Positions 26,320 to 54,231 of a stretch of 64,000 nt of DNA are shown piece by piece. The translations under genes and the position numbers were made by a program. The DNA comes from an uncultured Gammaproteobacteria bacterium (GTDB taxonomy: Bacteria > Patescibacteriota > Patescibacteriia > Patescibacteriales > GWC2-42-12). The notes under the pieces are model-generated. The model did not search any database and had not been told where the DNA came from. It saw only the letters and a program-made list of their open reading frames with translations. Numbering within the stretch: position 1 is the first letter of the stretch; the number at the start of each line of letters is the position of its first letter. Where the stretch lies: assembly GCA_964560005.1 (NCBI GenBank), contig CAZLKB010000002.1:128381-192380 (forward strand), written 5' to 3'.

Positions 26320-26504
26320 GTTTGCCGGCCTTAAGTATTTATTTATCGCTTCGGATGAAATTTAAGTATTTTTTCTTAAAATTATAATAAACTGGGTCTG
26401 GATAATTTTAAGAAAAAATAATACAATTTCACCACCGCTCTTTTTTTTAGCTCAGAGGAAGGCACCGAGGAGCCGCTCTAAATAAATACCTAAGGCCGGC
26501 AAAG
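26320..26504. repeat. Long-range inverted repeat with nested palindrome, upstream of rfbB
   Basis: GTTTGCCGGCCTTAAGTATTTATTTA (26320-26345) pairs with TAAATAAATACCTAAGGCCGGCAAAG (26479-26504). Inner pair: CTTAAAATTAT/ATAATTTTAAG. Confidence 0.7.
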
Positions 26505-37876: not shown

Positions 37877-37933
37877 ATTTTAAATCACAAAAAAAGGAAA
37901 TTTGCGTGAGCAAGCGTTAAGAATAAAATTATC

Positions 37934-38308
37934 TTAATTATTTTTAAACTTTTTCATTTTACTCCGCATAACGAATATAAGAACAATCCATAAAAGTGCA
38001 AGGCTGAATATAGTATCAAAAACAACCATCATCAAAGCCGCAAAACTGTCCCCAAAAACTGAAAAAATTGCCCCTAAAAGAAGTGATATATAACCGGTAG
38101 TTACTCCTTGGGCTGACATAAATTCTCTTGTCATCATATCTATTATGCTTAATATGGTAAGGGCAATAAATATTCTAAAAAATATACGATATTTTTTATA
38201 TTTATCTGTGTCAGAAATTTTTTCAGTTTTTGCTTCCACAATTTTTTGTTTTTCAGCCGCTTTTTCATTTTCCTCTTTGTATAAATCCTTCATTTTTACT
38301 TCGCTCAT
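37934..38308 (-). CDS. Small membrane protein (charged N-terminus plus about 3 TM helices), upstream partner of the HEPN gene
   Basis: 124 aa. It lies 57 nt upstream of the HEPN ORF on the same strand. Confidence 0.5.
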   Translation of the reverse strand: MSEVKMKDLYKEENEKAAEKQKIVEAKTEKISDTDKYKKYRIFFRIFIALTILSIIDMMTREFMSAQGVTTGYISLLLGAIFSVFGDSFAALMMVVFDTIFSLALLWIVLIFVMRSKMKKFKNN

Positions 38309-38403
38309 ACTTTTTTATTTAAAAATAATTAAGATAATTTTATTTAGCTTGCGAACCAGATACGCCGTGTTAGGCGATGTATTTGTAAAAAATTATTTTA
38401 TTC

Positions 38404-43262: not shown

Positions 43263-43441
43263 CGAATAATGTAAAATGTAAATTTTAAAATAAAAAATGC
43301 TAGCTCCGCTAGCACCCCGCAGATGCGGGGTCATTGCAGAGCAATGACAATGCAAAATTTAAAATTTAGAATTTAGAATTGTTAATTTTACATTTTTAAC
43401 TGTCATTTTTCATTTTGATTTTTTAATTTTTCATTTTTATT
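43263..43441. repeat. Composite AT-rich palindrome with embedded three-hairpin module
   Basis: TGTAAAATGTAAATTTTAAAA words are mirrored by TTTTACATTTTTAAC... The module at 43299-43348 is inserted. Confidence 0.65.
43299..43348. repeat. Three-hairpin module, copy A in inverted orientation
   Basis: GCTAGCTCCGCTAGCACCCCGCAGATGCGGGGTCATTGCAGAGCAATGAC is the exact reverse complement of 18425-18474. Confidence 0.85.
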
Positions 43442-44648: not shown

Positions 44649-45515
44649 ATGAAAAAAATAACTAAAGCGGTAGTGGCCGTTGCCGGCTCGGGCACTAGAT
44701 TTTTGCCGGTAACCAAATCAATGCCCAAAGAAATGCTACCGATCGTTGATAAGCCGATTATCCAGCTGGTGGTTGAAGAATTGGTGGCGGCCGGCATTGA
44801 AGACATAATCTTGGTGACCAAGTGGGATAAAAAGCCGCTGGAAGATCATTTTGACCAAAATTGGGCATTGGTGGGTGAGTTGAAGAAAGCCGGTAAAGAA
44901 AAGCTTTTGGAAGAGGTTAAGAGAATTTCTGAACTGGCTAATTTTATTTATATCAGGCAAAAAGGGCCATACGGCAACGGAACCCCGGTGTTATCCGCCG
45001 CCAGTATTATAAAAAATGAACCATTTATTTTTGTTTGGGGCGACGATTTGGTTAAAGCGGAAGTTCCTTTCGCCAAACAGATGGTTCTAGATTATGAAAA
45101 AAACGGCAATTTAATGATCGGGGTGCAGGAGGTGCCGCTAGATCAGGTCAGCCGTTACGGTATTGTTAAATTAAAGCCGGGAACCATGCAAATTCAAGAT
45201 ATAATAGAAAAACCAACAACCGATGAGACTCCTTCTTGTTTGGCCGATTTCGGACGCATGATATTAAATCAAGATATTATTGATATTTTAACGAAGACGG
45301 CTTTAGGCAAAGACAATGAGCTTTATTTGGTTGACGCGATTAGAACTTATGTGAAAAATGGCGGAAAATTTATGGCGAAGAAAATAAAAAACGGCGAATG
45401 GCTGACTACGGGAGATCCGTTGAATTATTTAAAAACCATGCTGAAATACGCTTTTGACAGGGCGGACATCGGACCGGAGATAAAGAAATTTACCAAAGAA
45501 TTATTAAAAAAATAG
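44649..45515 (+). CDS. galU: UTP-glucose-1-phosphate uridylyltransferase
   Basis: AVVAVAGSGTRFLPVTKSMPKEMLPIVDKP and VEKP-type blocks. Confidence 0.88.
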   Translation: MKKITKAVVAVAGSGTRFLPVTKSMPKEMLPIVDKPIIQLVVEELVAAGIEDIILVTKWDKKPLEDHFDQNWALVGELKKAGKEKLLEEVKRISELANFIYIRQKGPYGNGTPVLSAASIIKNEPFIFVWGDDLVKAEVPFAKQMVLDYEKNGNLMIGVQEVPLDQVSRYGIVKLKPGTMQIQDIIEKPTTDETPSCLADFGRMILNQDIIDILTKTALGKDNELYLVDAIRTYVKNGGKFMAKKIKNGEWLTTGDPLNYLKTMLKYAFDRADIGPEIKKFTKELLKK

Positions 45516-45564
45516 CCATCAGATAATAATAAAATTAGATGGCTTGTGCTTGTTGGTCAGTTAA

Positions 45565-45688
45565 GTCTTGGCTAAATTTATTTATTTTTTCGCTGCGGAT
45601 CAAATTCTTTATGTGCCGGCCGGTCAGTCCGTTCGGCTGAGCTCACGACGAAGCCTCTCTTCAAAAATAAATAAATTTAGCCAAGACT
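45565..45688. repeat. Conserved-core / variable-stem element, copy 1
   Basis: Stem: AGTCTTGGCTAAATTTATTTATTTTT (45565-45590) pairs with AAAAATAAATAAATTTAGCCAAGACT (45663-45688). The core CGCTGCGGATCAAATTCTTTATGTGCCGGCCGGTCAGTCCGTTCGGCTGAGCTCACGACGAAGCCTC is shared with 53438-53509. Confidence 0.8.
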
Positions 45689-45719
45689 AGAAAAATAACT
45701 AGCATAACTTATAAACTTT

Positions 45720-46700
45720 ATGAATTATGATTTTTTAACTATCGGCGGAGCGACCGAAGATATAACTTTTTATACCGACGAAGGCGTCTTGATTGATAAC
45801 AAAAGTAATTTAACCAAGCAAAAATTATTGGCTTTTGAATATGGGGCTAAAATAAAAGTTAATAAATCTTTTTCCGGTTTTGGCGGTGGTGCGGCGAACG
45901 CGGCAGTCTGCTTCGCCCGCCTGGGCTTTAAATCAGCCTGCCTGGCCGCTATCGGCGAAGATCCGCGCGCGCGGAGAATTTTAGATAATTTTCGCAATCA
46001 AGGAGTAAACATATCTTTAATACAAAAGATTAAAAAATTTGAAACCGGATTTTCTTTTTTAGTAGTCGGTTCGGGGAGCGAACATATCTGTTTTTCCAAC
46101 CGAGCGGCCAACGACCAATTGTCAATTACGAATAACGAATTGCGAATCATGAAACAAGCGAAGTGGATCTACATAACATCGCTATCTGGACAGTGGCGGA
46201 CGAATTTGGATAAAGTTTTCTCGGTCGCGGGTTCGAAAATTTCCTGGAATCCCGGACGAAGTCAAATTTTAGCCGGGATTAAAGCGCTAAAGAAATATTT
46301 TACGCGCGTTGATTGCTTAATAGTCAATAAAGATGAAGCTATTGAACTGGTTATGTCGGATAAACTATATAAAAATCGGGGAGCTGGTTTTTTAAATAAA
46401 TCCGGCAGTTTATTATCAGCCTTAGCCTCTTATGGTCCTAAAATCGTGTTGGTAACCAACGGCCCTTTCGGCGCCGACGCCATTTTCTGCGGAAAGATTT
46501 ATCATCAGCCGATAGTAAGAGCAGCCAGGCGCGTTGACACTACCGGAGTAGGCGATGCTTTTGGCTCGTCTTTTATCGCCGGCTTGGAATTATATAATCA
46601 AGATATCAAGCGGGCGCTAGTCTTAGCAGCCAGAAATTCAGCGGCGGAAATCAGCCATCAGGGCGCGCAGAATGGATTAATGCGGAAGAAAGATATCTAG
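45720..46700 (+). CDS. PfkB-family carbohydrate kinase
   Basis: GGGAANAAV and the C-terminal DTTGVGDAFGSSF signature. Confidence 0.8.
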   Translation: MNYDFLTIGGATEDITFYTDEGVLIDNKSNLTKQKLLAFEYGAKIKVNKSFSGFGGGAANAAVCFARLGFKSACLAAIGEDPRARRILDNFRNQGVNISLIQKIKKFETGFSFLVVGSGSEHICFSNRAANDQLSITNNELRIMKQAKWIYITSLSGQWRTNLDKVFSVAGSKISWNPGRSQILAGIKALKKYFTRVDCLIVNKDEAIELVMSDKLYKNRGAGFLNKSGSLLSALASYGPKIVLVTNGPFGADAIFCGKIYHQPIVRAARRVDTTGVGDAFGSSFIAGLELYNQDIKRALVLAARNSAAEISHQGAQNGLMRKKDI

Positions 46701-47036
46701 GTGGAAAATGCACAATGTAAATTTTAAAATGAAAAATTAACCCAGTGAAATAATTGCAAAGCGAATTTTACTGGGCGGGACAATTTAAAATTAAAAATTA
46801 ATTTCTAATATCTAATTAATCTAATTTTTGATCAATGGCCAATTCCTAACCTGCCTACCGGCATTCAGGCGATTAAAGAAAATTTATAAATTAGAAATTG
46901 GGATTTGACCCGCCTCGCGTCGACGAGCGACAGCGAGTCGAGGCGGGTTAGGTCAATTAGGAATTAGAATAATTAGACATTTTCAATTTTCAACTATAAT
47001 TTTTCATTTTGATATTTACATTTTTAACTTATCATT
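46701..47036. repeat. Composite AT-rich palindrome with embedded GC modules
   Basis: AATGTAAATTTTAAAATG/CTAATT words are mirrored by AATTAG/TTTTCA words. GC modules lie at 46850-46870 and 46897-46953. Confidence 0.65.
46897..46953. repeat. 57-bp GC-rich hairpin repeat, copy 2
   Basis: Identical to 18326-18382. The flanking AATTAGGAATTAGA words are also shared. Confidence 0.85.
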
Positions 47037-47609
47037 ATGCAAGTACCCATAGAAGTCTCGGCCAGGCATGTTCATTTGTCAAAAGCCGATTTGGAAAAAT
47101 TATTCGGTTCGGGTTATGTTTTATCCAAACTCAAAGATTTATCTCAGACCGGGCAATTCGCGGCCAAAGAAACCGTTAAATTGGCCGGCCCGTTAGCCAT
47201 TATGGATAGAGTCAGAGTTTTAGGCCCTTGCCGAAAAGAAACCCAGATTGAAGTGTCGGCGACGGACGCGAAATTCCTCGGCCTTGAACCGCCGGTTAGG
47301 GATTCGGGGGAATTAGAGGGAACGCCAGGCATAAAAATTATCGGTCCGATCGGCGAATTGCAGGTTAAGCGGGGCGTAATTGTAGCTTTAAGGCATATCC
47401 ATATGGAACCGGAAGTAGCCAAAAATTTAGGATTAAAAGACAGCGACCGGGTTAAGGTTGATGTCAGCGGCGCGCGCGATTTATTATTTGAAAATATTTT
47501 AGTCAGAGTTGACCCGAGCTTTAAACTGGCTATGCACATTGACACGGACGAAGCCAACGCGGCCGGCATAGGCAAGGACAATAGGGTGGGTGAGATAATA
47601 GTTAGTTAA
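47037..47609 (+). CDS. pduL: Phosphate propanoyl/acetyl-transferase PduL
   Basis: Two PduL repeats with VSARHVHLS and ALRHIHM histidine motifs. 190 aa. Confidence 0.8.
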   Translation: MQVPIEVSARHVHLSKADLEKLFGSGYVLSKLKDLSQTGQFAAKETVKLAGPLAIMDRVRVLGPCRKETQIEVSATDAKFLGLEPPVRDSGELEGTPGIKIIGPIGELQVKRGVIVALRHIHMEPEVAKNLGLKDSDRVKVDVSGARDLLFENILVRVDPSFKLAMHIDTDEANAAGIGKDNRVGEIIVS

Positions 47610-47719
47610 AAATGTAAAAATCAAAATGTAAAATTATTGTATAATTATTTCATGAAAAATTTATTAAATTTTTCACTCCATAATTTTAAATTTTAAGATT
47701 TAAAATTTACATTTTTTAT
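47610..47719. repeat. AT-rich palindrome (TGTAAAA word family)
   Basis: AAAATGTAAAAATCAAAATGTAAAATT is mirrored by AATTTTAAGATTTAAAATTTACATTTTTT. The centre is TGAAAAATTT...AAATTTTTCA. Confidence 0.65.
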
Positions 47720-48574
47720 ATGCCCGAACTGCCGGAAGTGGAAACTATTGTTAGGGATTTAGAGAAAAAATTAAGGCATAAGAAAATTACCGGCCTGGAA
47801 TCTTTGGACATAAAAGTTTTCCAGCTGACTCCCGGGCAGGTTAAAAAAATAATCGGCAAAAAAATTAAAGAAGTCAGACGGCGGGCTAAAATGATAATCA
47901 TTGACTTGGGCGATGATTTTTTAGTAATTCATTTAAAAATGACCGGCCAGCTGGTCTTAAAGACGAGGAGCGGCCTGATTGCCGGCGGCCATCCGATCAT
48001 CAATGCGGGAAATGAGCTGCCCAATAAATTTACCAGGGTGATTTTTAAATTTAGCGGCGCCAACGCCCTTTTTTTTAACGATGTCAGGCGGTTCGGCTGG
48101 ATTAGATTAATATCTAAAGATGATTTTTTAAAGCTGGATAAAAGTTTCGGGGCCGAGCCTTTGGCTCCGGGCTTCACTTTAGAATATTTTAAAAGGGCGT
48201 TATCGGGCAAGAAAAAAACTTCTATTAAGCAAGCTTTATTGGAGCAAGGGCTGATCGCTGGAATCGGCAATATCTACGCCGATGAAGCCTTGTTTCTGGC
48301 CGGCCTAAGGCCGTTCAGGCGGGTTAAATCGTTAAAATCAAAAGAGATGGAGAAGCTCTGGCGGGTTATTCCCGGCCTTTTAAAAAAAGCCATAAAATAC
48401 CGCGGCACTTCTTTCAGCGATTATGTGGACGCGCTGGGACGGCGGGGCAATTTCATAAAATTCCTGCGCGTTTACGGCCGGGCGGGGGAGAAATGCTTCC
48501 GTTGCGGCGGCGCGGTGGAAAAGATGAAACTGGGCGGCCGGAGCACGCATTGGTGCGGCCGGTGCCAAAAATAA
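47720..48574 (+). CDS. mutM: Formamidopyrimidine-DNA glycosylase
   Basis: N-terminal MPELPEVE, the H2TH region, and a C-terminal CxxC...CxxC zinc finger (CFRCGG...HWCGRCQ). Confidence 0.92.
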   Translation: MPELPEVETIVRDLEKKLRHKKITGLESLDIKVFQLTPGQVKKIIGKKIKEVRRRAKMIIIDLGDDFLVIHLKMTGQLVLKTRSGLIAGGHPIINAGNELPNKFTRVIFKFSGANALFFNDVRRFGWIRLISKDDFLKLDKSFGAEPLAPGFTLEYFKRALSGKKKTSIKQALLEQGLIAGIGNIYADEALFLAGLRPFRRVKSLKSKEMEKLWRVIPGLLKKAIKYRGTSFSDYVDALGRRGNFIKFLRVYGRAGEKCFRCGGAVEKMKLGGRSTHWCGRCQK

Positions 48575-48683
48575 AAATAATTTAAAATTGGCGATGCTTT
48601 AGCAGTCGGACGGGTATTCATAAAGGCTATTTTTAAATTCAGGAAAAGTATGGTATAATATAACCATCTAATATTCTCTAAAT

Positions 48684-51113
48684 ATGAAATCAGCCCCATA
48701 TTTAAATTTTTCAGTCAAATTAATTATAATTTTGGCTCTGCTTTTTTTAATCTCTCAAGCGAAATCTCAAGCCGCCACCAGCCCCGACGCCGTGGCCTTC
48801 CGGGTTATACCCAACCCGGAGTATCTCTCGCCCCTGCGCTGGTACCGAGAAAATATCAAGGTTAAAGGCTCGCCCCAGTCCTTGACTGTTGACGGCTACC
48901 AGGCGGTGCGCGACGGCAGAACGGTTTATGTCAATGCGGCTAATGTAGATCCGGCTAACCCGAATTTTTATACAAATATTTACATCATTTCCTACAATCA
49001 GGAGGCGGAAGATTCCACGATAGATATTTTCGGCCAAATTCTAAAAAAATGGGTTTTTAATTCCAATATAAGCGGAAGCGTTTGTAGCTTTGATAATGAA
49101 AAATGTTCATCATCTACTAAAGACTGTAAAGACGCAGGCGATTGCGTCAGCGTAAAAGGCCAGATTGTGCGCGACACTAAGCGCCTGGCTGATCTGGCCG
49201 ATATAAAATCAGCTTTAAAAAATTATCAGGCCGAGCATAGCGGAACTTATCCCGAACTGGCCGCCGGTTCATACCTTACGGGCAAGTCTATTTCGGTTTG
49301 GCCCAGCTGGCGCGCTACCTTGGGAGCCGCTCTTGGCATCACCATACCGATTGATCCGCTGAATAAATTAGGCGCCTGCACGACTCCTACGGGCTTTAAT
49401 CCTGTAACCTGCTGGAATCAGGCGACTAAAACTTTTGCCGATCCTCCTCCGCCCGATGAGTTTAATCTGCCAGCCAACAGCCACGCTTATGTCTATACGA
49501 TTGACGCTCAAGGCCGGTATGATCTTTGCGCCTTAATGGAATCGGAATACACGATTGATTTGGACGGCGCCTGCCCCGATTCAGGCAAGGGCTATGAAGG
49601 CGAGGGAGGAGCGGCCTTGCCTACCATTAATTGCGGCACAATCGTGGCGGCTCAATTAGCGCCCTTTTCCGGCTTTATCAGTTTGTCCGGAACTTACGCG
49701 GATAGGTACGACTGGACAATAGAGCCTGTTACGCCAACTTCTTGGGATACATGGGAAGATCAAGGCTGGGGGTGGGACAATGGCTCTAGTATGCTCAAAA
49801 TAAGTAGTTTTATAAATACGGGTAACTTTGTTACTAAACAGCTGACCGCGCAATTAACCCCGGACTCGGGCAAAGGTCCTTATAGTTATAAAGTTAGAGT
49901 TAGATATGGCGAAAAAACAGTTGAAGAAACCTGTAATATCACGATTAACTGCGTGCCGCAATGTCCGGCGGCCAGTGATGTTAATGCAGGCTATACTTAT
50001 AAAGGAAGCGACGGTTGTTGCGGCTCTTGCTGGGTGGAAGGGACCAAGTGCGTAGTTGATCCATCTTCCTGGGAGCCACTCTCAAGCACGAAATGTCCGA
50101 ATGAGACGGTCACTCAAACCAGTAATTGCGGCACCACTCAAAATGTTTCCGGTACTAAGTGCTGTTCAAAGCCAGGCTGTAGTTCGAGTCAGCCGGCTTA
50201 TCCAACGGCGGCAGTTACCGGCAGTACTTGTCCGGCGGGTGAAACATGCTATCAGTGTGCAGAAGGATATAGCTGGCATAGCGCTACTTTAAAATGCGTT
50301 AAATGCGGAGACGGTGTTGTGGAGGGCGATGAGCAATGTGATACAAATTCTGGAGATTGCACGGATATCAATTCGGGGTACAAAGGAACTAGAACTTGTA
50401 ATTCAAATTGTCGATGGAATGACTGCGTAACAACGGAATATTGCGGCGATGGTATTATAAATGGCAACCCCGGCCTAGAAAAGTGCGACGAAACATCATC
50501 CAGAGTTTGTTACGGGCAGGGGGGGGCTGCACTACCAAACTATTGTGTTGCTGGTTCATTGGTCGCAGGAACTCAAAATTGTATACATTGTAAATGGGGT
50601 GATTGTAGCCTAAATCCACCCATTGAAAATACTTCTACAACTTGTGATTCTAGCAATGTTGCGATTACTTCTCCTTGCTGTGAATTAGTAAAGTGCACTC
50701 AAGATGGTTGCGGTTGTTGCGGCCACACTACTACACCGGCGGAAGTTACAGATGGCTATGAAACTGTAACTGATCTGGCCGGCGAAAAAATGGAAAAGAC
50801 TGCGGTATGGGACCCGGCTAGAAGAATTACATTTTATTATAATAACAATACTCCAAACGATCCAAGTGATGATAAATTTTGCCCCGGAGGATATTATGAT
50901 AATACGAATAATATATATAAACCCGCACCACCAAATGAAATCCCATATTTATGCACTTCTTGTGATGATAAATACTCTATTTGCCCCGATTGTTGGGGAG
51001 AAAATAATTATACATGCAAGTTAAATCGAATTCCTAATACTAATAACTGGGAAATAACCACCAATCATTCGGCGGCATATTATCGTTGCTGGCAAGGAAT
51101 ACCACAACCATAA
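48684..51113 (+). CDS. Large secreted Cys-rich protein with pilin-like domain and CGDG Cys-rich repeats
   Basis: Signal peptide. RDTKRLADLADIKSALKNYQ resembles the RDxxRxxDLxxIxxAL pilin-like block. CGDGVVEGDEQCD and YCGDGIINGNPGLEKCDE repeats are present, along with many Cys. Confidence 0.6.
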   Translation: MKSAPYLNFSVKLIIILALLFLISQAKSQAATSPDAVAFRVIPNPEYLSPLRWYRENIKVKGSPQSLTVDGYQAVRDGRTVYVNAANVDPANPNFYTNIYIISYNQEAEDSTIDIFGQILKKWVFNSNISGSVCSFDNEKCSSSTKDCKDAGDCVSVKGQIVRDTKRLADLADIKSALKNYQAEHSGTYPELAAGSYLTGKSISVWPSWRATLGAALGITIPIDPLNKLGACTTPTGFNPVTCWNQATKTFADPPPPDEFNLPANSHAYVYTIDAQGRYDLCALMESEYTIDLDGACPDSGKGYEGEGGAALPTINCGTIVAAQLAPFSGFISLSGTYADRYDWTIEPVTPTSWDTWEDQGWGWDNGSSMLKISSFINTGNFVTKQLTAQLTPDSGKGPYSYKVRVRYGEKTVEETCNITINCVPQCPAASDVNAGYTYKGSDGCCGSCWVEGTKCVVDPSSWEPLSSTKCPNETVTQTSNCGTTQNVSGTKCCSKPGCSSSQPAYPTAAVTGSTCPAGETCYQCAEGYSWHSATLKCVKCGDGVVEGDEQCDTNSGDCTDINSGYKGTRTCNSNCRWNDCVTTEYCGDGIINGNPGLEKCDETSSRVCYGQGGAALPNYCVAGSLVAGTQNCIHCKWGDCSLNPPIENTSTTCDSSNVAITSPCCELVKCTQDGCGCCGHTTTPAEVTDGYETVTDLAGEKMEKTAVWDPARRITFYYNNNTPNDPSDDKFCPGGYYDNTNNIYKPAPPNEIPYLCTSCDDKYSICPDCWGENNYTCKLNRIPNTNNWEITTNHSAAYYRCWQGIPQP

Positions 51114-51117
51114 AAAT

Positions 51118-51870
51118 ATGGCCAATAAAAAAATAATCACAATTTTTATTATCGCCGTTGTATTATTTAGCTTATCCGGAGCTTTGGTTTTTTTTCTAAT
51201 TAAACGAACCGGCAATAGCAATCAAATTATAGCGAACGGCTCTAAAGCCGACGTTATAAATGAATTAAAAAATCATTATCCGGCTATCAACGATGAACAG
51301 GCCAGCCTTTACGTAAATATAGCCGCCGCCGGCGGGGCTACATCCTGCCAGGGCAGATCCGACGCCAGCGTTTGCGCTTCTTCCATCGGCTATATTAAGG
51401 GTAAAGAAGATTTTTGCCACGATCTAGACCATGCTGACGAATTATTATACCGTGAATGCGTCGGCGGCGTTCTTAAAAAAAGCGCGAAAGCCAGGCTTAG
51501 CCAATGCCAGGCCTTGAGCGGCGATGACTATTATAATTGCCTGTGGGCGATTTTAGACGCTTATACAGGATTAAAAGATTGCGGCGATCTGCCGGACGCG
51601 GAAACGCGGTCAGTCTGCGAAGACTTTTTTAATTACCGAACCGCCCTAATAAGCTATGACCGGGCGCTATGCGGAACGGTTAAAACCGAAAAATTAAACC
51701 AATACTGCCTTAAAGTCATTATTGATAAAAATCAGGACACGGATAAGGACGGCTTAACCGATTTGGATGAAATAAATATATATAGGACTCATCATTTGCG
51801 CGCCGATTCAGATAACGACGGCGTTAGCGACGGGGAAGCGGTCAGGCGGGGATTGATCAAAGCGAAATAA
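51118..51870 (+). CDS. Membrane-anchored Cys-containing protein with C-terminal Asp-rich calcium-binding-like repeats
   Basis: N-terminal TM helix. The C-terminal DTDKDGLTDLDE and DSDNDGVSDGE motifs are thrombospondin-type-3-like. Confidence 0.5.
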   Translation: MANKKIITIFIIAVVLFSLSGALVFFLIKRTGNSNQIIANGSKADVINELKNHYPAINDEQASLYVNIAAAGGATSCQGRSDASVCASSIGYIKGKEDFCHDLDHADELLYRECVGGVLKKSAKARLSQCQALSGDDYYNCLWAILDAYTGLKDCGDLPDAETRSVCEDFFNYRTALISYDRALCGTVKTEKLNQYCLKVIIDKNQDTDKDGLTDLDEINIYRTHHLRADSDNDGVSDGEAVRRGLIKAK

Positions 51871-51880
51871 AATAGTAAAT

Positions 51881-51917
51881 AAAAAACTGCCGCGGACGAA
51901 CCCGCGGCAGTTTTTTA
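51881..51917. terminator. Bidirectional intrinsic terminator
   Basis: CTGCCGCGG (51887-51895) pairs with CCGCGGCAG (51902-51910). It sits between an A-run and a T-run and between convergent genes. Confidence 0.8.
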
Positions 51918-51933
51918 TTCGAAAACAGGGTTA

Positions 51934-52365
51934 TTAAAAAATAAGGAAACTGAAGAGGCTGATTAGAAAGCCGATTAATGAACCGACGATAATTTGCGCC
52001 GGCGTATGGCCGATTTTTTCCAGGAGTTTGGGATAAATCTCATCCAGCATTTTGTCTTCTTTTAAATCTTTCACTAAAATATTTATAATTTCTCCGTGCT
52101 GGCCGAGATATCGCCTTAAGCCCAAAGCATCCCTGATAATTAAAAAACTAAAAATAAAACAGACGGCGAACAGGGGAGACGAAAAACCTTGGCTTAAGCC
52201 GACGATAGCGGTCAGGGAAACAACGAAGGCGGCATGGCTGGAAGGCATGCCCGAATAAGACGATAGGGAACGCCAATTGAATTTTAAATTGTTTGACTTA
52301 ATGAGCGGCTTGCTTAGTTGGGTGATTATGCCGGCCGCTAAAGCGGTAATTAAAATTTGAGGCAT
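51934..52365 (-). CDS. Divergent PAP2 (acid phosphatase-like) membrane protein
   Basis: 143 aa with SGMPSSHAA and a later IGHTP motif. Confidence 0.7.
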   Translation of the reverse strand: MPQILITALAAGIITQLSKPLIKSNNLKFNWRSLSSYSGMPSSHAAFVVSLTAIVGLSQGFSSPLFAVCFIFSFLIIRDALGLRRYLGQHGEIINILVKDLKEDKMLDEIYPKLLEKIGHTPAQIIVGSLIGFLISLFSFLIF

Positions 52366-52381
52366 AGTTGAAATATTATAA

Positions 52382-53263
52382 TTAAGCGGAGCTGAGTTTA
52401 TTAATTTTCAGGAAATAATGGGTCAACAAGAAAATTAAAGAGTAGGCCGTTAGCAGAGATAAGAAAACGATAAAAAAATTATTGGAAAAACCTTGGTAAT
52501 CCGGCTGTGCAATAAATGTGTTCACCCGGCTGGCGCCGTAAATATCAGCCGGTAAAGTTATTTTATCATTGGCAGGCGGCAATACCTCTTGGCTGATAAT
52601 CGCGCGGGTCAACAGGTTTTCCGCGCCGGTCAATCGCGGATCAAATAATTTTACCTCTTCGGGGATCAGGCTTGAATTTAAATGCCAGGATTCGGAATCG
52701 CCGGTAAGAGGCGCGGCCGAACCGACTGCCGGAGCGCCGAATATCTGCACCACCACCGTAGTATCTTGCCCCTGAAATTTCCCCGGCATGGCGGCGATGC
52801 CGGTTTCCTGATAATAGGGGCTTAGAAGATTTTTTTTGTGCAGCGGCGAATTATTCCAAGCCTCCATCACGCCTTCGCTGGTCATAAAATCAATCGCCAG
52901 GTTTTCACCGACATAAGAATAATTATAACCGGTATCTTTGACCCAGCTGGAAAAGGTTTTATCATTAATGGTGTGTTTAAAGGTATTGGCGGCTAAGATT
53001 GATTGGCCCTTTTGAATCGCCGCTTGCGTTAATAGTTGATTGACGGTCAAAGAGTTTAAGCCTTGAGACTGCCTTTCTTGGTTGGTTAATTCAATCAGTT
53101 TTTCCGGCGTGATTGTGGATAAATAAGCCAAACCGGGCAATAAAAAAATCCCTATCAGTGCGCCCAATAGAGACAGCTTTAAATTCGCTTTAATTAATCT
53201 GTTATATTCCTTTTTAGGACCGCCATAAGTAAATATCAGCCGTCCGTTTATTCTTTGAATCAT
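52382..53263 (-). CDS. CAP/SCP-domain secreted protein with membrane anchors
   Basis: LTNQERQSQGL...GENLA...AWNNSPLHKKNLL are CAP-domain blocks. TM segments occur at both the N- and C-termini. Confidence 0.7.
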   Translation of the reverse strand: MIQRINGRLIFTYGGPKKEYNRLIKANLKLSLLGALIGIFLLPGLAYLSTITPEKLIELTNQERQSQGLNSLTVNQLLTQAAIQKGQSILAANTFKHTINDKTFSSWVKDTGYNYSYVGENLAIDFMTSEGVMEAWNNSPLHKKNLLSPYYQETGIAAMPGKFQGQDTTVVVQIFGAPAVGSAAPLTGDSESWHLNSSLIPEEVKLFDPRLTGAENLLTRAIISQEVLPPANDKITLPADIYGASRVNTFIAQPDYQGFSNNFFIVFLSLLTAYSLIFLLTHYFLKINKLSSA

Positions 53264-53412
53264 TTTTATTTTTATCTTTATTTTTGTTTTTTGTCAACTT
53301 TTTTGACTATGATATAATTATAGCACATTATTTTAAAAAAAGCAAGGTTGCTTGATTAATGTCATTCTGGTAAGATAAAAGCAAATGGATTGCCCTAGTT
53401 ACGGTCATAAAG

Positions 53413-53533
53413 TTTTAGCTGGATTAATTTATTTTTTCGTTGCGGATCAAATTCATTATGTGCCGGCCGGTCATTCCGTTCGGCTGAGCTCACGACGAAG
53501 CCTCGTTTCAAAAATAAATTAATCCAGCTAAAA
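53413..53533. repeat. Conserved-core / variable-stem element, copy 2
   Basis: Stem: TTTTAGCTGGATTAATTTATTTTTT (53413-53437) pairs with AAAAATAAATTAATCCAGCTAAAA (53510-53533). The core at 53438-53509 is nearly identical to 45591-45660. Confidence 0.8.
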
Positions 53534-53569
53534 CTAAAATTATTAACTAGCACCATCCATATCAACCAT

Positions 53570-53995
53570 ATGAGAAAAAAAATCATTGTTGCCGTGAGCG
53601 GCTATTTCAACCCCTTGCATGTCGGCCACTTAGAGATGATGGAAAAGGCGAAAGAGCTGGGCGATTACTTGGTGGTTATTGTAAATAACGACCACCAAGT
53701 AAAACTAAAAGGCAGTGTGCCGTTTTTAAATCAGGAGGACAGAATTAAAATCATTTCCGCAATCAGGTGGGTGGATAAGGTTTTTTTATCAATTGATAAA
53801 GACAAAACGGTTTGCCGTTCTTTAGCCAGGGTTAAACCGAATATTTTCGCTCAAGGCGGCGACAGGAACACTGGCAATATTCCCGAAGCCGGTATCTGCC
53901 GGCGGCTGGGCATTAAAATGGTAGACGGGTTGGGCGGGAAGATCAGGTCAAGCTCAACTTTAATCGCGCAGGCCGCGGCTGTTAAAAATAAATAA
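53570..53995 (+). CDS. Cytidylyl/adenylyltransferase-family protein (TagD/RfaE domain II-like)
   Basis: SGYFNPLHVGHLEMM (HxGH motif) and the small nucleotidyltransferase fold. Confidence 0.72.
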   Translation: MRKKIIVAVSGYFNPLHVGHLEMMEKAKELGDYLVVIVNNDHQVKLKGSVPFLNQEDRIKIISAIRWVDKVFLSIDKDKTVCRSLARVKPNIFAQGGDRNTGNIPEAGICRRLGIKMVDGLGGKIRSSSTLIAQAAAVKNK

Positions 53996-54070
53996 TATTA
54001 ATTTTTAAGAGAACTCCAGGCGTATAAAAGATTGGTACAGTTGCTTATAGAGAATAGCTTTAGTGAAATT

Positions 54071-54216
54071 GGGCGGATAAAGATATTTATTTTTTACTCG
54101 AGACGAAATCTGGGTATTTATTCTTAAAATTATTTTATAATAATATAAATTGAATAATTTTAAGAATAAATTACTACGATTTCGTATTCGTTCAAAATAA
54201 ATATCTTTATCCGCCC
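54071..54216. repeat. Nested palindrome upstream of mltG
   Basis: A 23-bp perfect inverted repeat: GGGCGGATAAAGATATTTATTTT (54071-54093) pairs with 54194-54216. It encloses CGAAATC/GATTTCG and TATTTATTCTTAAAATTATT/AATAATTTTAAGAATAAATTA. Confidence 0.85.
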
Positions 54217-54231
54217 ACCAATATAAACTAT

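Follow-up and report, generated by a model that had tools for sequence, protein, structure and literature searches.

Two hairpin loci of a Patescibacteria contig as probable nested, non-autonomous dispersed DNA holding a 25-nt unit shared across bacterial phyla

Introduction

In a stretch of 64,000 nucleotides of contig CAZLKB010000002.1 (assembly GCA_964560005.1, Patescibacteriota; hereafter the window), a conserved core occurs twice, each time closed by a long stem. What kind of element gives such a pattern? A preliminary description of the sequence offered two answers: a structured RNA, or a hairpin-bounded mobile element whose stem is built from local sequence. Here, we conclude that the two loci are probably nested non-autonomous dispersed DNA, in which a non-coding palindromic carrier of about 125 bp, specific to a Patescibacteria lineage, holds a 25-nt insertion unit. 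Hence, the hairpin-bounded mobile element is favoured: the element is absent in relatives, the window contains other elements of the same build and the 25-nt unit behaves as an insertion. The local origin of the stem has to be abandoned, because the arms of the two copies are homologous.

Results

Two 125-nt hairpins with homologous arms

Both copies are on the + strand of the window (45564-45688 and 53411-53535) and, as first described, in the same orientation. Two sub-patterns of the core each match exactly twice, on this strand, where 100 shuffles give an expectation of zero. The hairpins are organized as follows.

45564..45589, + strand: copy 1, 5' arm of a 26-bp perfect inverted repeat, AGTCTTGGCTAAATTTATTTATTTTT
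45590..45662, + strand: copy 1, 73-nt loop (the "core" of the preliminary description), beginning with TCGCTGCGGATCAAATT, a module also present in the element at 26346
45629..45655, + strand: copy 1, 27-mer CCGTTCGGCTGAGCTCACGACGAAGCC, made of the 25-nt insertion unit and the adjoining CC
45663..45688, + strand: copy 1, 3' arm
45696..45704, + strand: TAACTAGCA motif 3' of the copy 1 hairpin, common to both copies
53411..53436, + strand: copy 2, 5' arm, AGTTTTAGCTGGATTAATTTATTTTT
53437..53509, + strand: copy 2, 73-nt loop
53476..53502, + strand: copy 2, 27-mer (25-nt unit and CC)
53510..53535, + strand: copy 2, 3' arm
53544..53552, + strand: TAACTAGCA motif 3' of the copy 2 hairpin

In each copy, 26-bp arms that are 100% Watson-Crick paired enclose an asymmetric loop. 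The core, initially given as about 70 nt with about three differences, is this loop of 73 nt, and it differs at five positions (45593 C/T, 45608 T/A, 45627 G/T, 45658-59 TC/GT). The perfect inverted repeat of about 25 bp seen round each core is also present, with 26 bp; the two versions, described as different sequences, are in fact identical at 21 of 26 positions. Each of the five differences affects both arms; there is no one-sided change and no G-U wobble pair. The likeness between copies extends past the hairpin, with GGTCA upstream and TAACTAGCA downstream. Because the arms are homologous, stem and loop must have been copied together. The GC content of the loops (55-58%; 58% in copy 1) exceeds that of the window (39%) and of the arms (19%).

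This anatomy is what favours a structured RNA, that is, either a leader acting in cis or a small RNA cut out of a long processing stem, which would co-regulate envelope or sugar-nucleotide genes by means of a functional loop and co-varying stems. The 26 pairs show five double changes and none is broken, and the predicted RNA fold is very strong (copy 1, -49.2 kcal/mol, z = -6.3; copy 2, -50.2 kcal/mol, z = -7.7). The double changes of the outer stem come from two sequences only. Moreover, stems that are purely Watson-Crick, with no G-U, fit DNA-level copying at least as well as selection on RNA.

Perfect arms could also belong to an inverton, in which the 26-bp inverted repeats are recombination sites and the 73-bp segment flips to switch the downstream gene on or off. 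The repeats lie directly upstream of cell-envelope genes, several other cassettes of the window are bounded by 24-27-bp perfect repeats, and recombination between arms would hold the arms identical. However, 73 bp is far below the size of known invertible segments and hard to loop, both copies have the same orientation, arm sequences vary between cassettes except at their AT-rich inner end, no recombinase was found among 13 nearby genes scanned, and no promoter-like site was seen inside copy 1. We regard an inverton as very improbable.

The core contains a 27-mer found across bacterial phyla

The core has two components: a lineage-specific part of about 48 nt and, nested inside it, a 25-nt unit, CCGTTCGGCTGAGCTCACGACGAAG, followed by CC. 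Unit and CC form the 27-mer, the most conserved part of the core, and the next nucleotide is a pyrimidine in 91% of the copies listed. We scanned the exact 20-mer GGCTGAGCTCACGACGAAGC against one genome per GTDB species; all counts of loci and copies below refer to the matches listed. These represent at least 115 loci in about 74 metagenome-assembled genomes (MAGs) with at least 13 labelled phyla, several genomes holding multiple loci. The labels are Chloroflexota, Planctomycetota (Kuenenia, Brocadia, Wunengus), Thermodesulfobacteriota, "Deltaproteobacteria", Calditrichota, Dadabacteria, Methylomirabilota, Verrucomicrobiota, Binatia, Bacteroidota, Cyanobacteriota, Pseudomonadota, Sumerlaeota and Schekmanbacteria. 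In addition, a 22-mer from the core matched one phage contig, in an unrelated GC-rich context. Overall, the unit spans at least 14 phylum-level lineages plus phages. A database-wide search for the core thus succeeds for its 27-mer part; the window-specific core was matched nowhere else, with no window-type core in the viral collection and no match to its junction pattern in the metagenome scan.

The exact 27-mer is present in 95 of the 122 copies, and its seven positions outside the searched 20-mer are 91-98% conserved. Directly beyond both ends, conservation drops to background and the flanks are unrelated. Copies from the same genome share long genome-specific flanks, which shows that the 27-mer is embedded in genome-specific repeat families. 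It is mostly intergenic, and no recurrent gene was found beside it, the neighbours being ordinary housekeeping genes. Relative to the genes on either side it is randomly oriented (20 same/same, 17 opposite/opposite, 16 same/opposite and 14 opposite/same).

In one Cyanobacteria MAG (L111, ~7058, minus strand), the 22-nt centre of the unit, GTTCGGCTGAGCTCACGACGAA, lies between 10-nt direct repeats, GCCTTTAACC, unlike the other copies. This direct repeat may have arisen by target duplication or by a tandem event at the site.

Could a synthetic oligonucleotide or an assembly error have put the 27-mer into MAGs? Every one of the at least 115 genome matches is a MAG, and the block is invariant and sharply bounded. 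Yet the flanks are ordinary genes of very different genomes from many laboratories, the copies sit in genome-specific repeats with point differences, and the block is internal to contigs, not at chimeric ends. Variants of the 27-mer also occur in finished records, those of the cultured cyanobacteria Kovacikia, Brasilonema and Synechocystis PCC 7338 and of an isolated cyanophage, the Microcystis phage MaMV-DC. Therefore, the 27-mer is not a MAG artefact, and we find an assembly or library origin scarcely credible.

The invariance of the 27-mer could instead reflect a binding constraint, the 27-mer being a DNA or RNA recognition site for a factor common to many phyla (in replication, repair, segregation or defence) that the hairpins merely present. 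Extreme cross-phylum invariance and sharp edges agree with such a signal, as do the central 8-bp palindrome TGAGCTCA, the several copies per genome without a linked mobility gene, and the low self-structure of the canonical form, which suggests primary-sequence recognition. On the other hand, no candidate factor is known, and the unit is nested in genome-specific, selfish-looking repeats and occurs patchily, chiefly in groundwater, sediment and cyanobacterial lineages. It is also absent from the close relatives of the window genome and from all 2-kb neighbourhoods examined around genes for RAYT (REP-associated tyrosine transposase; REPs are repetitive extragenic palindromes), and it interrupts and frameshifts a transposase gene (L032, see below). 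A host-function signal therefore appears quite unlikely.

The unit behaves as a discrete 25-nt insertion

In the Chloroflexota MAG B27T3L8 (L032, minus strand, ~5220), the 27-mer block lies inside a DDE transposase gene. In silico removal of exactly 25 nt restores the reading frame ...RPHQSLGYRTPHQYL... / ...RIYNTVRPHQSLGYRTPHQYLREL..., and the Pfam rve_3 match extends from profile positions 2-62 (39.8 bits) to positions 2-67 of 67 (53.9 bits). In Kuenenia (L018) and in another Planctomycetota locus (L022), GGGTTCARG-loop-CYTGAACC hairpins of one family are found empty and filled in the same locus. The empty form reads GGGTTCAGG-TTTGCAA-CCTGAACC and the filled form GGGTTCAGG-TTTGTAA-[25 nt]-CCTGAACC. 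Together, the empty and filled hairpins and the restored transposase frame identify the 27-mer as a 25-nt unit plus the CC of its target.

The interrupted gene in L032 encodes an IS481/IS3-like DDE transposase, frameshifted by the unit at the conserved motif RPHQS/LGYRTP. This transposase also shifts frame between its N-terminal helix-turn-helix part and its catalytic domain.

After removal of the unit in silico, 35% of the junctions fall in a perfect hairpin (stem of at least 6 bp), compared with 11% of control CCY sites, most of these hairpin junctions being at the loop edge. Perfect inverted repeats of at least 8 nt flank 31% of the 27-mer copies and 8% of the controls. Hence, a closing stem is common, and the idea that it is universal is rejected. 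The preliminary description had held that further copies lacking the stem would speak against its pattern; such copies exist for the 27-mer elsewhere.

Empty hairpins were detected solely by family-specific patterns: BLAST of joined flanks gave no empty paralogue in 900 kb of loci, and a second metagenome scan gave no match to the filled or empty forms of the Kuenenia site. The possibility that the unit represents the two fused ends of a longer insertion sequence (IS) was ruled out, since no solo half-sites were found in the 900 kb.

The hairpins are absent from syntenic sites of relatives

The gene context was correctly described. Copy 1 is located between a galU-type gene (44649-45515) and a pfkB-family kinase gene (45720-46700), which are co-directional. 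Copy 2 is in the intergenic region from which a CAP-domain gene (52382-53263, minus strand) and a cytidylyltransferase-like gene (53570-53995) diverge, and thus cannot be a terminator. In both copies, the hairpin ends 31-34 nt before the downstream ATG (45720, 53570). Homologues of the neighbouring kinase are labelled Falkowbacteria, Parcubacteria or Patescibacteria.

Related genomes, suggested earlier as the place to look for empty sites, lack the element at both syntenic sites. The motif was not found at the galU-kinase junction of three relatives (kinases 75%, 70% and 67% identical), in which this junction is 13 nt, 82 nt or an overlap. The closest relative (cytidylyltransferase 86% identical in amino acids) keeps the synteny DUF212-CAP-cytidylyltransferase-YceG. 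There, the first ~140 nt of the CAP-cytidylyltransferase intergenic region align, including a promoter-like part, and the hairpin is missing. With flanking proteins 67-86% identical, these empty sites are not base-exact. Absence from both syntenic sites points to a lineage-specific gain of the 125-nt element, which argues against a dedicated leader RNA for the downstream genes.

At the position of the copy 2 hairpin, the closest relative (L123, 2380-2470) has other GC-rich modules, CACGGGGCGGGATCAGCCTGAACCCCGGCA and GCTCTAAGCGATCTTAGCCTGGC. The leader region of copy 2 seems to be a hot spot for such inserts.

The promoter-like part of the copy 2 region corresponds to the following feature.

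53291..53318, + strand: predicted promoter TTGTCA-16-TG-TATAAT (11/12, consensus match only), in a region conserved in the closest relative

With this site as promoter, copy 2 would belong to the 5' leader of the cytidylyltransferase-like gene. A consensus scan showed no promoter-like site around or inside copy 1, which is probably inside the galU-kinase transcript. Judging from these arrangements, both window copies are probably within mRNAs. A 26-bp double-stranded RNA stem 31-34 nt before a start codon would be a plausible target of RNase III, with possible side effects on expression.

For a structured RNA, these positions are favourable. Both copies are on the sense strand at the same distance from the ATG with TAACTAGCA in common, copy 2 is downstream of a strong promoter-like site and copy 1 between co-directional genes. 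The downstream genes encode a ribokinase-family kinase and an rfaE-domain-II-like nucleotidyltransferase, and related elements precede rmlB and mltG. Nevertheless, four relatives lack the element upstream of the orthologous genes, and the kinase does not match HldE domain I in particular (94 bits to ribokinase, 33 bits to rfaE_dom_I). The cytidylyltransferase is rfaE_dom_II-like with 80.8 bits, for a cut-off of 181.5. A regulon of the two HldE halves is ruled out by these profile scores and by the element-free relatives.

Other hairpin-bounded elements of the window

Several other elements of the window are bounded by long inverted repeats.

26321..26503, + strand: third, related hairpin element; arms 26321-26345 / 26479-26503, 25 bp, 96% complementary
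54070..54217, + strand: fourth hairpin element, of the same build; arms 54070-54093 / 54194-54217, 24 bp, perfect
35157-35182 / 35500-35525: 26-bp perfect inverted repeat GCAGATGAGAATAAATTTATAATTTT, enclosing 317 nt
37922-37948 / 38318-38344: 27-bp perfect inverted repeat AATAAAATTATCTTAATTATTTTTAAA

The interior of the third element begins with TCGCTTCGGATGAAATT, as do both cores, and the TCGCTNCGGATNAAATT module is common to this element and the cores. Where the cores have the 25-mer, it carries a nested AT-rich palindrome, and an rmlB-type gene (26538) is 35 nt downstream. The fourth element, 14 nt upstream of an mltG/yceG gene, has inner arm ends that read ATTTATTTT. These two elements share a nested AT-rich palindromic module (…TATTTTTTCTTAAAATTAT…ATAATTTTAAGAA…). 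The inner arm ends of the window elements have the AT-rich ATTTAT(T)TTT in common, and their outer ends are unique. No long perfect inverted repeats of this kind were found in three relatives examined.

The two remaining repeats have other contents. The 35157-35525 pair encloses a promoter-like site, read in the sequence as TTGACA-17-TATACT. The 37922-38344 pair exactly brackets a minus-strand open reading frame (ORF) of 124 amino acids (37934-38308), whose stop codon is within one arm and whose product looks like a small membrane protein. As one pair encloses promoter-like sites and the other a whole ORF, not all of the repeats can be RNA processing stems; this holds in particular for the 35157 pair, which encloses its own promoter-like sites.

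In five window elements, the 24-27-bp arms are 100% Watson-Crick paired, amounting to about 130 bp without a mismatch or a G-U pair, which also stands against a structured RNA. Together with the mirroring of all five arm differences between copies 1 and 2 without wobble, this suggests that a DNA-level process keeps the arms identical, and fold-back copying or correction of one arm against the other would be candidates.

Inside the 35157-35525 repeat we also noticed a short hairpin-terminated RNA-like stretch (~35258-35330) and a tRNA-like sequence of 70-72 nt with a G3:U70 pair, which ARAGORN predicts as tRNA-Ser(tga) at 35359-35428. Rfam gave no tRNA for the sequence at 35359-35428, only a sub-threshold tmRNA match (30.2 bits vs 47, E 1.6e-10). 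Elsewhere in the window, the long intergenic spacers 29116-29449, 43263-43441 and 46701-47036 open with AATGTAAA-type AT-rich repeats and hold GC-rich mini-hairpins, among which ATCCCGCAAGATGCGGGAT (29284-29302) and CCCCGCAGATGCGGGG (43315-43330) are clearly related. The sequence CGCTTCGCCATAGCTTAGCGAGGCGAG (~29356-29382) is similar to the reverse complement of the 27-mer.

Structure of the unit and tests for a functional RNA

Variants of the unit keep an 8-bp mini-helix (TTCGGCTG / CNNCCGAA) that is 91.5% paired, compared with 41-54% in slid registers. Among eight variants, this mini-helix shows one double change (C-G to U-A), and one pair is G-C, G-U or G-A; 56 of 500 shuffles match this result. 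A conserved mini-helix with G-U at one pair is a further point for a structured RNA, and the variants of MaMV-DC and L051 are predicted to fold well. The canonical, widespread form has two mismatches in the mini-helix and alone forms no stable hairpin (-2.2 kcal/mol as DNA, z = +0.7 vs shuffles). As it folds no better than shuffles, its invariance is mainly at the level of primary sequence.

At the gathering score, Rfam 15 recognized no family in the window or in 18 loci, and a known RNA family is therefore rejected. Even at E<=10, the only matches were sub-threshold, chance-level ones to long hairpins (plant microRNA precursors). The flanking helices show no strand-specific wobble bias (G-U, 319 forward vs 331 reverse), in a noisy comparison where controls with mismatched partners fold almost alike. 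An origin of the unit from 23S rRNA was also considered, from a 9-nt match noticed by eye, CGUCGUGAG, and dismissed as chance level.

In about 74 genomes the 27-mer has every orientation to genes, and one copy lies inside a transposase ORF; the orientation agrees with the downstream gene in both window copies and is random in about 110 copies elsewhere. With this random orientation, no Rfam family and no element upstream of orthologous genes, the structured RNA put forward at the outset is disfavoured, and we consider it unlikely. A functional RNA role of the two window copies is possible, given their sense orientation, fixed distance to the ATG and compensated stems; conservation, orientation statistics and known families do not support it.

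A RAYT-type candidate for the mobilizing enzyme

In two of the at least 115 loci, L087 (Dadabacteria) and L114 (Bacteroidota), a Y1_Tnp gene (IS200/RAYT-type) is found 260-290 nt upstream of the unit, and in L087 the unit is in the loop of one GTAG-type REP. However, the 25-mer was not found within 2 kb of three close homologues of the L087 protein, or of a homologue belonging to the candidate phyla radiation (CPR), examined in eight loci. The flanks of these RAYT homologues contain classical GTAG-type REPs of other sequence (CCACCAGTCTTGCTGGTGG-type). Hence, RAYT is rejected as the mobilizer for the clade tested, and its adjacency is best read as insertion of the unit into REP clusters.

Two RAYT groups were observed on this occasion. 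The Dadabacteria/Thermodesulfobacteriota clade (L087 5780-6800, L125-L127) has GTAG-type REPs on both sides, GGGTAGNCCACCAGTCTTGCTGGTGG and GGTCACGAGCAAGACTCGTGACCTACC, and appears from its sequence organization to be a clean REP-RAYT system of uncultivated lineages. In Buchananbacteria-type CPR contigs from many samples (L128-L135), a 187-aa Y1_Tnp/RAYT-like gene has the fixed context dprA, Mur ligase, RAYT, topA, which suggests that a single-copy RAYT has been domesticated in the CPR.

Discussion

We propose that both layers, the carrier and the 25-mer, act at the DNA level as non-autonomous mobile DNA. As to the mechanism of spread, we infer that the 25-mer moves next to CC at hairpin loops: an enzyme provided in trans would paste it beside the CC of a single-stranded DNA hairpin loop. 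Insertion beside a fixed dinucleotide, the lack of target duplication and the preference for loops suggest, by analogy, a single-strand mechanism of the HUH type. An HUH/Y1-type nuclease would thus be the best guess for the enzyme, the one clade tested not being responsible; the poor hairpin of the canonical 27-mer weakens the analogy with hairpin-recognizing HUH enzymes. The carrier may be copied via a fold-back intermediate, or its arms may be corrected against each other. Either process would keep the arms perfectly complementary and make each arm mutation look compensated.

Several observations weigh against this interpretation. Both copies are co-oriented, 31-34 nt from the start codons of sugar-nucleotide-type genes and share TAACTAGCA downstream, and perfectly compensated stems are equally predicted by selection on RNA. 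The 64 kb contain only two carriers and two relatives of the carrier, and neither the viral collection nor the metagenome scan holds the window-specific core. The carrier shows no target-site duplication, transposase or clean empty site, and its nearest relatives are too diverged to be compared base by base; presence/absence polymorphism of the unit at an orthologous site was found neither in the 900 kb of loci nor in the second metagenome scan. No mobilizing enzyme was found, the homologues of the L087-adjacent RAYT being without the 25-mer. A canonical 27-mer that forms no stable hairpin by itself counts in the same direction. Finally, a near-identical 25-mer across phyla is hard to square with ordinary transposon decay.

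The sequence of the unit is kept to the letter in Patescibacteria, Chloroflexota, anammox Planctomycetota, Desulfobacterota, Calditrichota, Cyanobacteriota and phages. We tentatively suggest that it could be a pan-bacterial "nano-element", which would be the smallest mobile DNA known and the sole one to be cross-phylum. The machinery that pastes it beside CC in hairpin loops would be encoded away from it and would be either a frequently transferred enzyme, for example a phage-borne one, or a universal replication or repair activity of the host. The carrier hairpins would then be a by-product through which the leaders of neighbouring genes can be rewired.

If the 25-mer really moves, the question becomes what copies 25 bases without terminal repeats, target duplication or linked gene, and does so identically across phyla. 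In practice, the unit and its carriers form long hairpins before genes, frameshift genes and yield spurious ORFs (...RSAELTTKP...) in MAG annotation. The unit is also a handy marker of horizontal exchange among uncultivated groundwater and sediment lineages and phages. A riboswitch-like annotation of the "conserved RNA core" of the window is not warranted without expression data.

Comparison with known systems

Searches of the literature returned no match to the sequence or peptide strings, and nothing relevant on Patescibacteria with inverted repeats or miniature inverted-repeat transposable elements (MITEs). The carrier recalls a MITE; compared with the classical type, it has arms that are perfect within each copy and 21/26 identical between copies; the other window elements share the inner ATTTATTTT only. 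Presence/absence at orthologous sites is observed, in relatives whose sites are not base-exact (67-86% identity). No parent IS was found in the window, and the flanks show no consistent direct repeat (copy 1, ...CAGTTA on the left and AGAAAA on the right; copy 2, ...TCATAA and AAAATT).

Correia elements (CREE/NEMIS) of Neisseria and ERIC/IRU of enterobacteria are intergenic palindromes of ~100-150 bp with terminal inverted repeats of ~26 bp. They are found near gene starts and are probably co-transcribed, which gives a long double-stranded RNA stem. The 125-bp carrier has a comparable size, arm length and closeness to gene starts, is probably co-transcribed as well and would form the same kind of stem. 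It differs in having no TA or other target duplication, in arms that vary between copies yet are perfect within each, the loop and not the arms being conserved, and in the mere handful of copies seen. The mosaic of small nested intergenic modules of the window (AT-rich arms, nested palindromes, GC-rich mini-hairpins) recalls bacterial interspersed mosaic elements (BIMEs). These differ in modules, hosts and sequences, and the window yielded no IHF-type module.

With the REP/REPIN-RAYT systems, the unit shares its short length (20-40 nt), extragenic position, association with palindromes, many copies and lack of coding capacity. It is even found inside GTAG-type REP hairpins, near Y1_Tnp genes in two loci. 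Unlike REPs, it has no 5' GTAG (GTRG) and is a poor hairpin in its canonical form. In addition, REP families are species-specific, whereas the 25-nt unit is the same across phyla, and around the homologues of the adjacent RAYT there are other REPs and no copy of the unit.

The closest parallel by description is with the small dispersed repeats (SDRs) of Nostocaceae, of which eight families are published, and in particular with SDR4, SDR5 and SDR6. In 2008, Elhai et al. (Genome Res 18:1484) reportedly presented such repeats as "very small mobile repeated elements" of 21-27 nt, nested inside other repeats. Later papers cite SDR5 as a "repeat module" with a precise insertion site within HIP1, and report no SDR outside Nostocaceae (PMC3116915, PMC5861425, PMC4390886). 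The unit belongs to the same size class, and near-identical dispersed copies are what we find here (25 nt; 95 of 122 listed copies exact). Its insertion is likewise precise by comparison of filled and empty forms (restored rve ORF; hairpin paralogues empty and filled), and it too is a modular unit with no linked gene. If the 25-mer really moves, the range of very small mobile repeats, so far a single cyanobacterial family, would widen to much of the bacterial tree. Two differences stand out against what these papers describe: the target of the unit is CC at hairpin loops, whereas that of SDR5 is HIP1, and the unit spans at least 14 phylum-level lineages and phages, compared with one cyanobacterial family for the SDRs.

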